Below the pieces are notes generated by a model that did not search any database, was not told the origin of the DNA, and worked only from the letters and a program-made list of their open reading frames with translations. Positions 1,617-6,921 of a stretch of 6,921 nucleotides of DNA are shown in pieces. A program made the position numbers and the translations under genes. The stretch comes from a virus (Duplodnaviria; Heunggongvirae; Uroviricota; Caudoviricetes), in the IMG/VR virus record IMGVR_UViG_2563366929_000003; one strand, written 5' to 3'. The first letter of the stretch is position 1. Every line of letters begins with the position of its first letter.

Positions 1617-3516
1617 TGCAGCCGGTGCGATAGCTACAGGGCTTTTATCTCTCATTATTCCTGTTCCACTGACGACAGTTCAGTGGGCCAATAAACATTA
1701 TTACCTTCCTAAAGAGTCGTCTTATACCCCGGGGCGGTGGGAAACACTGCCGTTTCAGGTTGGCATCATGAACTGTATGGGCAACGATTTGATTCGCACT
1801 GTTAACCTGATTAAATCTGCCCGTGTTGGTTATACAAAGATGTTGCTGGGAGTGGAGGCTTATTTTATTGAGCATAAATCACGCAACAGCCTTCTTTTTC
1901 AGCCCACGGACTCAGCTGCTGAAGATTTTATGAAATCTCATGTTGAGCCAACGATAAGGGATGTTCCTGCATTGCTGGAGCTGGCTCCATGGTTCGGAAG
2001 AAAACACCGCGATAATACGCTCACCCTGAAGCGTTTTTCCTCCGGTGTGGGGTTCTGGTGTCTGGGTGGTGCGGCAGCAAAAAACTACCGTGAAAAATCC
2101 GTGGATGTGGTCTGTTATGACGAGCTTTCCTCGTTCGAACCGGATGTTGAAAAAGAGGGTTCGCCAACCCTGCTGGGGGATAAACGTATTGAGGGCTCTG
2201 TATGGCCAAAATCCATTCGCGGCTCGACGCCTAAAATCAAAGGCTCCTGCCAGATCGAAAAAGCCGCTAACGAGTCGGCACACTTCATGCGTTTTTATGT
2301 GCCCTGTCCGCACTGTGGGGAGGAGCAGTATCTGAAATTTGGCGATGATGCCTCGCCTTTCGGTCTTAAGTGGGAGAAGAATAAGCCAGAAAGTGTTTTC
2401 TACCTTTGTGAGCATCATGGCTGTGTGATCCATCAGTCTGAGCTTGACCAGAGTAACGGGCGGTGGATCTGTGAAAACACGGGCATGTGGACCCGTGACG
2501 GCCTGATGTTTTTCAGCGCCCGGGGTGATGAAATTCCGCCGCCGCGCTCCATCACTTTCCATATCTGGACGGCGTACAGTCCGTTCACCACCTGGGTACA
2601 GATTGTCTATGACTGGCTGGATGCACTGAAAGATCCCAACGGCCTGAAAACCTTTGTGAACACCACGCTGGGCGAGACCTGGGAAGAGGCTGTGGGCGAA
2701 AAACTCGATCACCAGGTGCTGATGGATAAGGTTGTGCGTTACACGGCGGCGGTGCCTGCCCGGGTGGTTTATCTGACGGCGGGCATTGACTCGCAGCGAA
2801 ACCGTTTTGAGATGTATGTCTGGGGATGGGCTCCGGGAGAGGAAGCCTTTCTGGTGGATAAAATCATCATTATGGGGCGTCCCGATGAGGAAGAGACGCT
2901 GTTACGTGTGGATGCGGCGATCAACAAAAAATACCGCCATGCAGACGGAACCGAAATGACCATTTCCCGTGTCTGCTGGGACACCGGGGGGATCGATGGC
3001 GAAATCGTTTATCAGAGGTCAAAAAAACACGGTGTTTTCCGGGTGCTGCCGGTAAAAGGTGCATCTGTTTATGGCAAGCCGGTGATCACCATGCCAAAAA
3101 CCCGCAATCAGCGGGGCGTGTATCTGTGCGAAGTGGGGACGGACACCGCAAAAGAAATTCTCTATGCCCGTATGAAAGCCGATCCCACGCCTGCGGATGA
3201 AGCCACGTCGTATGCCATCCGTTTTCCTGATGATCCGGAGATTTTTTCGCAGACAGAGGCGCAGCAACTGGTGGCGGAAGAGCTTGTGGAGAAGTGGGAA
3301 AAAGGAAAGATGCGTCTGCTGTGGGATAACAAAAAGCGGCGTAACGAAGCGCTGGACTGCCTGGTGTATGCCTACGCGGCATTACGTGTGTCCGTGCAAC
3401 GCTGGCAGCTTGATCTGGCTGTACTGGCAAAATCCCGGGAAGAAGAGACGACCCGGCCAACCCTTAAAGAACTGGCAGCGAAGCTGTCCGGAGGAGTGAA
3501 TGGTTACAGTCGCTGA
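1588..3516 (+). CDS. A: Terminase large subunit (lambda gpA-like); ATPase/translocase plus endonuclease
   Basis: ORF track 1546..3516. Contains [10 protein letters not shown] at 1813-1842 (lambda Walker-A-like segment KSARVGYS), [20 protein letters not shown]...CEHHGC (2305-2424) and C-terminal RRNEALDC, all paralleling lambda gpA by recollection. Preferred start is ATG 1588 (MISDAQ...), giving 642 aa against lambda's 641 and overlapping the Nu1 end by 29 nt; the longer ATG 1546 is possible. Confidence 0.88.
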
Positions 3517-3706
3517 ACTGCAGGCGCTGCGTCAGGCGCGCCTTGATTTATTAACCGGTAAACGGGTGGTGTCTGTCCAGAAAGATGGTCGCAGAATTGA
3601 ATATACGGCAGCTTCTCTGGATGAGCTTAACCGGGCGATCAATGATGCGGAGTCGGTACTGGGGACAACCCGCCGTCGCCGTCGTCCGCTGGGAGTGAGG
3701 TTATGA
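3500..3706 (+). CDS. W: Head-tail joining / head completion protein (lambda gpW-like), 68 aa
   Basis: ORF track 3500..3706. Same length as lambda gpW; motif LTGKRVVSVQKDGRRIEYTA parallels lambda W ([20 protein letters not shown]). GGAGGAG at 3491-3497 just upstream of the ATG; overlaps the end of A by 17 nt. Confidence 0.85.
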   Translation: MVTVAELQALRQARLDLLTGKRVVSVQKDGRRIEYTAASLDELNRAINDAESVLGTTRRRRRPLGVRL

Positions 3707-5295
3707 AACGAACGCCTGTCCTGATTGATGTGAACGGCGTTCCGCTTCGTGAGAGTCTCAGCTACAACGGGGGCGGTGCAGGATTTGGCGGGCAAATGGC
3801 TGAGTGGTTGCCACCGGCGCAGAGTGCCGATGCGGCCCTGCTGCCCGCGTTGCGTCTGGGGAATGCCCGGGCAGATGATCTGGTGCGCAATAACGGAATA
3901 GCGGCCAATGCGGTGGCCCTGCATAAGGATCACATTGTCGGGCATATGTTTCTGATCAGCTACCGTCCGAACTGGCGCTGGCTGGGGATGCGGGAGACCG
4001 CGGCAAAAAGCTTTGTCGATGAGGTGGAGGCGGCCTGGTCAGAATACGCCGAAGGGATGTTTGGCGAGATCGACGTGGAAGGGAAACGCACGTTCACGGA
4101 ATTTATCCGTGAAGGTGTGGGCGTTCATGCGTTTAACGGCGAAATCTTTGTGCAGCCGGTCTGGGATACGGAGAGTACGCAACTGTTTCGTACGCGTTTT
4201 AAAGCCGTGAGTCCGAAACGGGTGGACACGCCAGGACACGGTATCGGGAACCGTTTTCTGCGGGCCGGTGTGGAGGTTGATCGATATGGCCGTGCCGTTG
4301 CGTACCATATCTGTGAGGATGATTTTCCTCGCTCCGGGAGTGGACGATGGGAACGGATCCCGCGTGAACTACCCACCGGGCGTCCGGCCATGCTGCATAT
4401 TTTCGAGCCGGTGGAGGACGGGCAGACCCGTGGGGCTAATCAGTTTTACAGCGTCATGGAACGGCTGAAGATGCTCGATTCCCTGCAGGCAACACAGCTT
4501 CAGTCGGCCATAGTGAAGGCGATGTATGCAGCGACGATTGAAAGTGAACTTGATACCGAAAAGGCCTTTGAATATATCGCCGGCGCGCCACAGGAGCAGA
4601 AGGATAATCCGCTTATTAATATTCTGGAGAAGTTTTCCAGCTGGTATGACACGAATAACGTGACACTGGGCGGTGTCAAAATTCCGCACCTTTTCCCTGG
4701 TGATGATCTGAAACTACAGACTGCGCAGGATTCAGACAATGGATTTTCTGCGCTTGAACAGGCGCTGCTGCGGTATATCGCCGCCGGTCTTGGCGTTTCC
4801 TACGAACAGTTGTCCCGTGATTACTCGAAGGTCAGTTACTCAAGTGCCCGCGCCTCCGCCAATGAGTCGTGGCGCTATTTTATGGGGCGGCGAAAATTTA
4901 TTGCGGCCCGGCTGGCCACGCAGATGTTTTCCTGCTGGCTGGAAGAGGCACTTCTTCGGGGGATTATTCGTCCGCCACGGGCACGTTTTGATTTTTATCA
5001 GGCGCGATCAGCCTGGTCACGGGCAGAGTGGATTGGTGCCGGAAGAATGGCCATTGACGGGCTCAAGGAAGTCCAGGAATCAGTGATGCGCATTGAGGCC
5101 GGACTGAGCACGTATGAGAAAGAGCTGGCGCTGATGGGCGAGGATTATCAGGACATTTTCCGCCAGCAGGTCAGGGAATCTGCTGAGCGGCAAAAAGCCG
5201 GACTCTCACGTCCGGTGTGGATAGCGCAGGCGTATCAGCAGCAGATAGCGGAGAGTCGCAGGCCGGAAGAGGAGACAACACCACGTGAGACGTAA
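3703..5295 (+). CDS. B: Portal protein (lambda gpB-like), 530 aa
   Basis: ORF track 3703..5295. Position between W and the protease gene and size (lambda B is 533 aa) match; ATGA start/stop overlap with W; GGAG in the 3691-3699 region upstream. Confidence 0.88.
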   Translation: MKRTPVLIDVNGVPLRESLSYNGGGAGFGGQMAEWLPPAQSADAALLPALRLGNARADDLVRNNGIAANAVALHKDHIVGHMFLISYRPNWRWLGMRETAAKSFVDEVEAAWSEYAEGMFGEIDVEGKRTFTEFIREGVGVHAFNGEIFVQPVWDTESTQLFRTRFKAVSPKRVDTPGHGIGNRFLRAGVEVDRYGRAVAYHICEDDFPRSGSGRWERIPRELPTGRPAMLHIFEPVEDGQTRGANQFYSVMERLKMLDSLQATQLQSAIVKAMYAATIESELDTEKAFEYIAGAPQEQKDNPLINILEKFSSWYDTNNVTLGGVKIPHLFPGDDLKLQTAQDSDNGFSALEQALLRYIAAGLGVSYEQLSRDYSKVSYSSARASANESWRYFMGRRKFIAARLATQMFSCWLEEALLRGIIRPPRARFDFYQARSAWSRAEWIGAGRMAIDGLKEVQESVMRIEAGLSTYEKELALMGEDYQDIFRQQVRESAERQKAGLSRPVWIAQAYQQQIAESRRPEEETTPRET

Positions 5296-6790
5296 TCTTT
5301 CACACATTATTGCCGCAGCATTCAATGAACCGCTGCTTCTGGAGCCCGCCTATGCGCGGGTTTTCTTTTGCGCGCTCGGGCGCGAGATGGGGGCAGCAAG
5401 TCTTTCGGTACCGCAACAGCAGGTACAGCTTGATGCTCCCGGGATGCTGGCTGAAACGGACGAGTACATGGCCGGAGGTAAACGACCGGCCCGTGTTTAC
5501 CGGGTGGTGAACGGTATTGCGGTACTGCCGGTGACCGGCACGCTGGTGCACCGGCTGGGGGGGATGCGGCCATTTTCCGGAATGACTGGCTATGACGGCA
5601 TTGTCGCCTGTCTTCAGCAGGCAATGGCAGATAGCCAGGTGCGGGGCGTACTGCTGGACATTGACAGTCCGGGCGGGCAGGCCGCCGGCGCGTTTGACTG
5701 CGCTGACATGATTTACCGCCTCCGGCAGCAGAAGCCGGTCTGGGCACTGTGCAATGACACGGCCTGTTCTGCAGCCATGCTGCTGGCGTCGGCCTGCTCC
5801 CGACGGCTGGTTACCCAGACATCCCGTATCGGCTCCATTGGCGTGATGATGAGCCATGTCAGCTATGCCGGTCATCTGGCGCAGGCCGGTGTGGATATCA
5901 CGCTGATTTACTCAGGGGCGCACAAGGTGGATGGCAATCAGTTTGAAGCGTTGCCGGCAGAGGTTCGCCAGGACATGCAGCAGCGGATTGATGCGGCGCG
6001 CCGGATGTTTGCCGAAAAAGTGGCGATGTTTACCGGTCTGTCTGTTGATGCAGTCACGGGAACAGAGGCCGCCGTTTTTGAAGGTCAGTCCGGCATTGAG
6101 GCCGGGCTGGCGGATGAATTAATCAATGCGTCGGATGCCATCAGTGTGATGGCCACGGCGCTGAACAGTAATGTCAGAGGAGGTACTATGCCGCAATTAA
6201 CTGCAACGGAAGCCGCCGCGCAGGAGAACCAGCGAGTGATGGGGATCCTGACATGCCAGGAAGCGAAAGGACGTGAACAGCTTGCCACGATGCTGGCAGG
6301 ACAACAGGGCATGAGCGTTGAACAGGCCCGGGCGATTCTGGCCGCGGCGGCACCGCAGCAGCCGGTGGCATCCGCGCAGAGTGAAGCCGATCGCATTATG
6401 GCGTGTGAAGAAGCGAACGGTCGTGAACAACTGGCGGCAACGCTGGCGGCGATGCCGGAGATGACGGTGGAAAAAGCCCGCCCGATCCTGGCGGCTGCAC
6501 CACTGGCGGATGCCGGGCCCTCGCTTCGTGATCAGATCATGGCACTGGATGAGGCAAAAGGGGCAGAAGCGCAGGCTGAACAACTGGCTGCCTGCCCGGG
6601 AATGACAGTGGAGAGCGCCCGGGCTGTGCTGGCTGCGGGATCAGGTAAGGCAGAACCGGTCTCTGCATCCACAACCGCCCTGTTTGAACATTTCATGGCG
6701 AACCATTCACCGGCAGCGGTACAGGGTGGCGTGGCACAGACGTCAGCAGACGGTGATGCGGACGTGAAAATGCTCATGGCCATGCCATGA
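5285..6790 (+). CDS. C: Prohead protease, S49 peptidase family (lambda gpC-like), with C-terminal scaffold-like repeat domain
   Basis: ORF track 5285..6790 (501 aa), GTG start overlapping the portal stop by 11 nt, GGAG at 5271-5274. N-terminal 300 aa parallel lambda C (AFNEPLLLEPAYARVFFCALG; GIAVLPVTGTLV; MTGYDGI; GAFDCADMI; KPVWAL; SRRLVTQTSRIGSIGVMM; ITLIYSGAHKVDGN) by recollection. Confidence 0.88.
   Translation: MRRNLSHIIAAAFNEPLLLEPAYARVFFCALGREMGAASLSVPQQQVQLDAPGMLAETDEYMAGGKRPARVYRVVNGIAVLPVTGTLVHRLGGMRPFSGMTGYDGIVACLQQAMADSQVRGVLLDIDSPGGQAAGAFDCADMIYRLRQQKPVWALCNDTACSAAMLLASACSRRLVTQTSRIGSIGVMMSHVSYAGHLAQAGVDITLIYSGAHKVDGNQFEALPAEVRQDMQQRIDAARRMFAEKVAMFTGLSVDAVTGTEAAVFEGQSGIEAGLADELINASDAISVMATALNSNVRGGTMPQLTATEAAAQENQRVMGILTCQEAKGREQLATMLAGQQGMSVEQARAILAAAAPQQPVASAQSEADRIMACEEANGREQLAATLAAMPEMTVEKARPILAAAPLADAGPSLRDQIMALDEAKGAEAQAEQLAACPGMTVESARAVLAAGSGKAEPVSASTTALFEHFMANHSPAAVQGGVAQTSADGDADVKMLMAMP
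6188..6790 (+). CDS. nu3: Nested in-frame scaffold protein (lambda Nu3-like), translated from an internal start within the protease gene; 200 aa
   Basis: Read directly: strong Shine-Dalgarno GAGGAGG (6176-6182) 5 nt upstream of an in-frame ATG at 6188 (codon 302 of the protease ORF). The product is Ala/Glu/Gln-rich, low-complexity and repeat-containing, as expected of a scaffold. Lambda has the same C/Nu3 nested arrangement. Confidence 0.6.
   Translation: MPQLTATEAAAQENQRVMGILTCQEAKGREQLATMLAGQQGMSVEQARAILAAAAPQQPVASAQSEADRIMACEEANGREQLAATLAAMPEMTVEKARPILAAAPLADAGPSLRDQIMALDEAKGAEAQAEQLAACPGMTVESARAVLAAGSGKAEPVSASTTALFEHFMANHSPAAVQGGVAQTSADGDADVKMLMAMP
6224..6670 (+). repeat. Three tandem, diverged ~48-53-aa protein-level repeats within the scaffold/Nu3 region (units approx 6224-6382, 6383-6526, 6527-6670)
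   Basis: Read from the translation: ENQRVMGILTCQEAKGREQLATMLAGQQGMSVEQARAILAAAAPQ / EADRIMACEEANGREQLAATLAAMPEMTVEKARPILAAAPLA / RDQIMALDEAKGAEAQAEQLAACPGMTVESARAVLAAGSG. All units are in the same frame with 159- and 144-nt spacing; DNA identity between units is only partial. Confidence 0.7.
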
Positions 6791-6826
6791 AGTCAGTGCT
6801 GACCATCAATAGGAGGTTTTTACAAT

Positions 6827-6921
6827 ATGGTGACGAAAACCATCACTGAACAGCGTGCGGAAGTACGTATTTTTGCCGGTAATGATCCGGCTCATACCGC
6901 CACAGGCAGCAGCGGGATTTC
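6827..6921 (+). CDS. D: Head decoration protein (lambda gpD-like), 5' partial (continues beyond window)
   Basis: ATG at 6827 preceded by AGGAGG (6811-6816). N-terminus MVTKTITEQRAEVRIFAGNDPAHTATGSSGI carries the NDPAHTAT motif recalled from lambda gpD (...SDPAHTATAPGG...). Position immediately after C/Nu3 matches lambda order. Confidence 0.8.
   Translation, partial: MVTKTITEQRAEVRIFAGNDPAHTATGSSGI

Follow-up and report, generated by a model that had tools for sequence, protein, structure and literature searches.

Introduction

Nested genes for a head protease and its scaffold are an established scheme in phage lambda and in herpes simplex virus 1 (HSV-1), according to the literature. We analysed a 6,921-nucleotide (nt) stretch of DNA from a tailed virus of the class Caudoviricetes (IMG/VR record IMGVR_UViG_2563366929_000003), referred to below as the window. 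Its head-maturation protease gene occupies positions 5285-6790, and within it, in the same frame, positions 6188-6790 very probably constitute the scaffolding gene of a phage-21-like prophage, corresponding to gene 6 of phage 21 and to Nu3 of lambda. Sequence features, positional identity with the phage 21 genes, homology with lambda C/Nu3 and conservation of a Shine-Dalgarno (SD) sequence with its ATG were each observed directly. Features described below are on the plus strand unless stated otherwise.

In lambda, the closest of the well-studied systems, an S49 protease gene (C) contains an in-frame nested scaffold gene (Nu3) and the two products have a common C-terminus; SD sequences are stated to be present at both starts. 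In HSV-1 (UL26/UL26.5) the scaffold, which is produced in excess, is likewise encoded in frame by the C-terminal portion of the protease gene. The herpesvirus protease, assemblin, has an unrelated fold, however, and UL26.5 is expressed from its own promoter and transcript instead of an internal ribosome-binding site. For Haloferax tailed virus 1 (HFTV1), harringtonine ribosome profiling together with mass spectrometry recently showed that the scaffold gp17.5 is made from an internal start lying in frame within the prohead protease gene (gp17). HFTV1 differs from the window in being an archaeal virus with no SD motif at its internal start, and only weak sequence similarity of its protease to the lambda protease has been reported. 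In phage P2 the protease (N-terminal) and scaffold (C-terminal) of gpO are encoded in one reading frame, as here; the protease is of another family.

Comparison with phage 21

Positions 5285-6921 of the window aligned with the phage 21 head operon at 98.4% nucleotide identity over 1637 nt. In the GenBank record of that operon (M81255.1), gene 5 is placed at 4572..6077 and nested gene 6 at 5475..6077, corresponding to 5285-6790 and 6188-6790 of the window. A putative ribosome-binding site at 5464..5468 of the same record falls at 6177-6181, and repeat regions named ‘Tri1 box’, ‘Tri box’ and ‘Tri3 box’ are marked within gene 6. The record of the complete phage 21 genome (OL657228.1) lists a ‘capsid protease/scaffolding protein’ and, nested in it, CPT_21_06 ‘scaffolding protein’ with a ribosome-binding site; the pair is likened there to lambda C/Nu3, and CPT_21_06 maps to 6188-6790, the same position as gene 6. 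Over the two records, the ribosome-binding site annotated for the nested gene corresponds to 6177-6182 of the window. An annotation note for Gifsy-1 quotes the Swiss-Prot entry VG05_BPP21 as ‘Head-tail preconnector protein GP5 [Contains: Scaffold protein GP6’. The nested scaffold gene is therefore already known and annotated in the type phage.

The window has the same open reading frame (ORF) of 501 amino acids (aa), internal ATG, three Tri boxes and neighbouring genes (portal upstream, shp decoration downstream) as phage 21. The SD-ATG region reads GAGGAGGCACTATG in phage 21 and GAGGAGGTACTATG in the window, where the codon of Gly300 is changed from GGC to GGT; the change is synonymous and lengthens the pairing with the anti-SD sequence by one base. 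A further difference is that the window is a prophage copy within an Escherichia coli chromosome. The ORF protein is identical to WP_016239227.1 (‘S49 family peptidase’), which comes from an E. coli contig of 4.7 Mb, and 1506 of 5426 complete E. coli genomes contain at least 80% of the window.

The nested gene is absent from the RefSeq/PGAP annotation of the E. coli chromosome copy that was examined, in which ‘S49 family peptidase’, also the product name on many homologues, is the only entry. The ORF list of the window likewise gives the long ORF only, as the first-pass annotation of this DNA had remarked of ORF calling in general.

Putative internal start site

The internal SD sequence GAGGAGG was located at 6177-6183 by reading of the sequence and by anti-SD energy. 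It lies in the codons AGA GGA GGT (Arg298-Gly299-Gly300) and is separated by a 4-nt spacer (TACT) from an ATG at 6188-6190; the first-pass annotation had placed it one base too far upstream (6176-6182) and given the spacer as 5 nt. The ATG, which it had put at 6188 in frame and about 300 codons into the protease gene, is indeed codon 302 of ORF 5285-6790 ((6188 - 5285)/3 = 301). Pairing with the 3' end of 16S rRNA was scored for every in-frame ATG, GTG and TTG within the five complete genes of the window (n = 135). The duplex at 6188 (-12.6 kcal/mol) ranked first, with the runner-up at -7.4 kcal/mol. It also outscored all gene starts in the window, including those of the decoration gene (about -10.9 kcal/mol), the W homologue (-9.5 kcal/mol) and the protease (GTG, -9.1 kcal/mol), so that the site is the best anti-SD match in the window. 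No sigma-70-like promoter was found upstream of 6188 in a promoter search, which is consistent with internal initiation of translation and not with a separate transcript. No Rfam family was matched in the window.

The protease ORF (5285..6790, 501 aa, GTG start), taken from the ORF list and its translation, is homologous to gene 5 of phage 21 and to C of lambda and matches PHROG 53 ‘head maturation protease’ at 5.9e-228. Its first 11 nt (5285-5295) are shared with the end of the portal gene, and an SD-like sequence, AGAGGAGA, is found 9 nt upstream of the GTG at 5268..5275, where ribosome-binding sites are annotated equivalently in M81255.1 and OL657228.1. The catalytic domain, a Peptidase S49 domain of SppA/ClpP fold, covers residues 146-293 (5720..6163; Pfam PF01343, E = 1.5e-34), and the SppA structures 3rst and 4kwb align to residues 77-290 (E = 3.6e-16). 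S162 and K214 are invariant in an alignment of seven sequences; from what is known of SppA and gpC we take them to be the catalytic dyad. Whether the domain is ended at residue 293 (Pfam) or 290 (SppA structures), the earlier placement of the internal start where the catalytic domain ends is confirmed, the nested start (residue 302) being 9 residues beyond the Pfam boundary.

A position 9 residues past the S49 fold would also suit an elongation pause at the boundary between protease and scaffold, serving co-translational folding with no initiation; that ribosomes pause at SD-like sequences has been suggested in the literature, though the work is disputed. A pause needs no ATG, yet the SD sequence is conserved jointly with an ATG 4-8 nt further on, and the spacing is optimal for initiation. 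When all GGAGG sites in the window were listed, its other domain boundaries were found to be without such a motif. Pausing could coexist with initiation and leaves the ATG unexplained, and as the main role of the sequence we regard it as very improbable.

Comparison with lambda C and Nu3

Initiation of a scaffold at 6188 was compared with the arrangement in lambda. The two systems have the same synteny (Nu1-A-W-B-C/Nu3-D-E), and protein identity with gpC is 54%. Lambda has a strong SD-ATG, GGAGGgcgaATG, at 5333-5344 (ATG of Met309 of gpC) that aligns with 6188 of the window, and the scaffold box ENSRIMGIL...GMTVKTARRILAAAP is conserved. The scaffold of lambda contains one module where the window encodes three, and a 36-residue insertion precedes the lambda module.

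In the lambda RefSeq record (NC_001416), however, nu3 is placed at 5132..5737 (201 aa, 20.8 kDa), beginning at Met239 of gpC inside the S49 domain. The only SD-like sequence at 5132 is GGGAGACA, 12 nt upstream (-6.9 kcal/mol), whereas the ATG at 5342 (Met309) has GGAGG at 4 nt (-10.8 kcal/mol) and would give a product of 131 aa (13.4 kDa). Both forms of Nu3 occur as called proteins, the 131-aa form on 165 contigs as ‘hypothetical protein’. UniProt may already list lambda Nu3 as an isoform lacking residues 1-308, with its start at Met309; if it does, the lambda part of the present analysis is a database inconsistency and not a discovery.

The nested scaffold of the window might also begin elsewhere in the frame, either at the equivalent of lambda Met239, where RefSeq places nu3, or at GTG 6236 or ATG 6239, which have an SD sequence of their own (CAGGAGA, -7.4 kcal/mol). 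No start is possible at the Met239 equivalent, since the aligned codon in the window is ATT (Ile235, at 5987). At 6236 and 6239 the SD spacing is 8 and 11 nt and the energy is far weaker than at 6188; conservation of CAGGAGA is accounted for by its location inside the conserved peptide Q-E-N-Q-R-V-M of repeat 1, and a start there would truncate the first module. To a start at any of these positions in place of 6188 we give a very low probability.

Conservation of the start and the single-product alternative

Several observations weigh against assigning a scaffold gene to 6188-6790. The phage 21 features carry the label ‘putative’ in M81255.1. The peptide Arg-Gly-Gly-Thr-Met itself favours an SD-like sequence: in 1000 synonymous-codon permutations of the protease gene an energy of -10 kcal/mol or lower was obtained at 6188 in 31%, and -12 kcal/mol or lower in 2.7%. 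Accessibility of the mRNA around 6188 was not distinctive in local partition-function folding (mean unpaired probability 0.42; background 0.37 +/- 0.08), 28% of the background positions being no less open. Most of the homologues compared are close relatives, so that the counts given below are not independent events. Position 6188 is not the positional equivalent of the RefSeq nu3 start at 5132, and the lambda precedent is transferred cleanly to the window only if lambda also starts at 5342.

The codon permutations bear on the alternative that the gene has a single 501-aa product, from which the C-terminal scaffold is freed by autoproteolysis as in P2 gpO, the SD-like sequence being a by-product of Arg-Gly-Gly. 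Fused protease-scaffold proteins with no internal start are known, P2 gpO having been described so, and most database records show one ‘S49 family peptidase’. Given the peptide bias, the single-sequence statistic is modest, suggestive without being decisive, and it is the comparative evidence that carries weight.

For this comparison, homologous loci were taken from genomes, IMG/VR and phage records. A scan of genome contigs with the single protein gave 6 loci only, and the best 80 loci from viral contigs were mostly near-identical; diversity was added by tblastn against phage records. For the stretch from the end of the protease to the first box, 24 distinct DNA variants were recovered, including lambda, Trabulsiella and IMG/VR loci at 60-68% identity, and an SD-like sequence with an in-frame ATG was present in all 24. 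SD and ATG are still present in relatives as distant as about 54% protein identity. Flanking residues differ among the variants while GGAGG is kept (SNVRGGTM, THDTGGTM, SNKTGGTM, SKTKGGNM, NNSKGGDM and, in lambda, LSGGRM). Two sequences in which Gly-Gly has been replaced still keep a purine-rich SD-like sequence, CAGGAGA (encoding Q-E-N) in one and a weaker AGAGGA (K-E-D; -5.8 kcal/mol) in the other, from Providencia, which argues against a mere by-product of the peptide. In a codon alignment of 71 distinct sequences the codon of Gly299 was GGA in 68 of the 68 homologues having Gly there. Of the four Gly codons, GGA is the one that these genes use least (19%), and only 2 of 40 conserved Gly columns were free of codon variation.

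More distant genes were compared by the rank of the boundary ATG, 25-30 residues past the last conserved protease motif, among the 21-45 in-frame starts of each of 13 genes that encode an S49 domain plus an extension (among them lambda, phi80, Gifsy-1, a Trabulsiella prophage, Vibrio, Marinobacter, Serratia, Pectobacterium, Stenotrophomonas and Rhodobacter phages, Chi and Felix O1). It ranked first in 10, second in 2 and fourth in 1 (Felix O1). A Burkholderia phage protease of 300 aa, which is without the C-terminal extension, had no SD-ATG at the boundary. Distant phages with a boundary SD-ATG include Vibrio HY01, Marinobacter PS6, Serratia Smarc1, RcIroh, Pectobacterium MA11 and Stenotrophomonas Suzuki.

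The retention of an SD-like sequence after loss of Gly-Gly (more weakly in Providencia), the constant use of the rarest Gly codon and the top rank of the boundary ATG in most of the distant homologues all stand against a single product. The P2 gpO type has no internal start, and the window has a strong, conserved internal SD-ATG. A single product also implies a 1:1 ratio of protease to scaffold, which is at odds with the stoichiometry in lambda. Lambda genetics, in work by Shaw and Murialdo from 1980, reportedly separates the functions of C and Nu3. We therefore consider a single product improbable. Initiation at 6188, with two products from one frame (the protease and a 200-aa scaffold, as in lambda C/Nu3), had been proposed in the first-pass annotation, and the phage 21 annotation, the lambda homology and the conservation of the SD-ATG all argue for it at the level of sequence.

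A broader reading is that the SD-ATG at the end of the S49 domain is the ancestral, family-wide start of the scaffold. It would then be used in phage 21-like prophages, in lambda (5342, 131 aa) and in many phages with no annotated scaffold, namely Chi-like Casjensviridae, Gifsy-1, phi80 and phages of Vibrio, Marinobacter, Rhodobacter and Stenotrophomonas, with weaker support in Felix O1. We put the chances of this reading at about even. If it is true, the number of modules per chain (1 in lambda, 2 to 4 or more in the 21-like alleles) would be a freely varying parameter of capsid assembly.

Predicted scaffold product

The nested gene (6188..6790; 200 aa and a stop codon) is a homologue of phage 21 gene 6 and a functional analogue of lambda Nu3. 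Its predicted product begins MPQLTATEAAAQ..., has a mass of 20.4 kDa and an isoelectric point of 4.6, and matches PHROG 8399 ‘head scaffolding protein’ at 3.5e-34. The composition is rich in Ala (24.5%, with Gln and Glu at 8.5% each). The region had been described earlier as low-complexity and Ala/Glu/Gln-rich; the Ala-rich part of that description stands, but plain low complexity does not, since the product consists largely of three diverged repeats of about 50 aa.

These modules were delimited from the repeat annotation of M81255.1, DNA repeats, alignment with the lambda Nu3 box and an AlphaFold2 (AF2) model. Module 1 (with the ‘Tri1 box’) comprises nested residues 6-58 (6203..6361) and was modelled at a predicted local distance difference test score (pLDDT) of about 80; module 2 (with the ‘Tri box’) comprises residues 59-107 (6362..6508) and module 3 (with the ‘Tri3 box’) residues 108-156 (6509..6655). 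In a repeat search the DNA copies were about 71% alike at spacings of 150 and 141 nt; Tandem Repeats Finder did not detect the Tri repeats because of this low likeness. At the protein level all three modules align with the single conserved lambda Nu3 box, ENSRIMGILNCEEAHGREEQARVLAETPGMTVKTARRILAAAP.

The AF2 model of the 200-aa product was generated from a 26-sequence alignment. This alignment was the only use made of a protein search with the 200-aa query, which returned mostly fragments of full-length genes on short contigs. The model shows three small helical bundles (pLDDT about 75-84) joined by low-confidence linkers, with a predicted template modelling score (pTM) of 0.28. Module 3 is followed in the model by a helix (nested residues 160-173) and then by a low-confidence acidic tail up to 6787. 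Such a pTM is expected for a string of small helical modules, ‘beads on a string’ with flexible linkers, as the model shows. A Foldseek search of the model against the PDB gave nothing better than E = 2.5, and with a pTM of 0.28 and a string of modules whole-chain structure matches are not meaningful. With Pfam, only sub-threshold HHH matches were obtained on the C-terminal part.

The length of the scaffold is polymorphic among natural E. coli prophages, in which alleles of 451, 482, 501 (the window) and 551 aa were found for the whole ORF. The 451-aa allele is without one whole module of about 50 aa, namely module 2, and the 551-aa allele has four scaffold modules. The commonest, the 482-aa allele, carries a 19-aa deletion inside module 2 and is present on at least 1000 contigs. 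In a 657-aa form, a duplication takes in the internal SD-ATG region.

Proposed mechanism

By analogy with lambda, we infer that 6188 is used in the prophage, that scaffold is made in excess and that assembly and proteolysis follow the lambda course; the lambda genetics and biochemistry behind these last steps are reportedly the work of Ray and Murialdo (in 1975), of Shaw and Murialdo (in 1980) and of Medina and colleagues (in 2010 and 2011). That nested protease-scaffold genes are generally recognised lends these steps further support. A single late polycistronic mRNA would be translated in one frame from two ribosome starts. Initiation at the first, GTG 5285, with its moderate and distant SD sequence, would give a 52-kDa protein made up of the S49 protease and the scaffold domain. 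Initiation at the second, ATG 6188, with a near-perfect SD sequence at 4 nt, would give the 20-kDa scaffold domain alone. The strengths of the two starts predict more scaffold than protease. The C-terminal modules are common to both products, and through them a few protease molecules would be expected to enter the procapsid together with a large number of scaffold molecules. Degradation of the scaffold, and of the protease itself, by the protease would then allow the packaging of DNA.

Annotation of nested scaffold genes

The discovery value of these results is small: a nested scaffold was reported for lambda in 1980, and the gene of phage 21 is already entered in the GenBank record of that phage's head operon. 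Their practical value is in annotation, as about 1500 of 5426 complete E. coli genomes carry the head operon. Where only ‘S49 family peptidase’ is listed, as in the RefSeq annotation examined, a presumably essential assembly protein is missing from the gene list. In the deposited annotation of the distant S49 head-protease records that were examined, one coding sequence only is given, and in none of the seven distant records checked for it does a scaffold gene of its own stand between the portal and capsid genes. Taken with the boundary SD-ATG in the distant genes, this indicates that nested scaffold genes are probably widely unannotated. Such genes should be recoverable by a simple rule, namely to search the 30 or so residues that follow the S49 domain for the best SD-ATG.

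Head operon and cos region

The window has the lambda-type order of head genes (cos, small and large terminase, W, portal, C/Nu3, D). The ORF list gives ORFs at 1068-1616, 1546/1588-3516, 3500-3706, 3703-5295 and 5285-6790 and a partial ORF from 6827, which are annotated in that order in the E. coli copy and in phage 21 as small terminase, large terminase, head-tail joining, portal, S49 peptidase and decoration protein. The last of these, the homologue of phage 21 shp and lambda D, starts at 6827 and runs off the window (6827..6921); it has its own SD sequence, AGGAGG, at 6811-6816.

The head operon is tightly coupled along its length: the SD sequence of the W homologue, GGAGGAGTGAATG (3490-3502), lies inside the large terminase gene, and the GTG of the protease lies in the last 11 nt of the portal gene. 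The W homologue SD is encoded by Gly-Gly codons at the end of the large terminase gene. The start of the large terminase is given as ATG 1546 in the ORF list (a 71-nt overlap with the small terminase gene) and as ATG 1588 by equivalence with RefSeq (29 nt); neither has a strong SD sequence. Inside the portal gene and out of frame, GGAGG followed 9 nt on by an ATG (4272-4288) heads a 66-aa ORF with a GTG start (4268-4468).

In OL657228.1 the CII-binding pattern TTGYN6TTGY is marked on the minus strand at positions corresponding to 6193-6206 and 6427-6440, one of them directly over the nested start. The window contains 4 occurrences of the pattern where 1.6 would be expected, and a count of 4 was also reached in 15 of 200 shuffles; the matches were therefore taken as probably due to chance and not as CII sites.

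At 879-890 the window contains a cosN sequence, GGGCGGCGACCT, that is the exact cohesive-end sequence of lambda and phage 21, and the junction between the two ends of the prophage genome falls within the window. To the left of cosN are minus-strand genes for a DUF1398 protein and YnfO (77-403 and 446-679). To its right is an AT-rich stretch with repeated TGTCCGA/TGTCGG motifs (about 985-1040), presumably cosB, followed by the small terminase gene at 1068.

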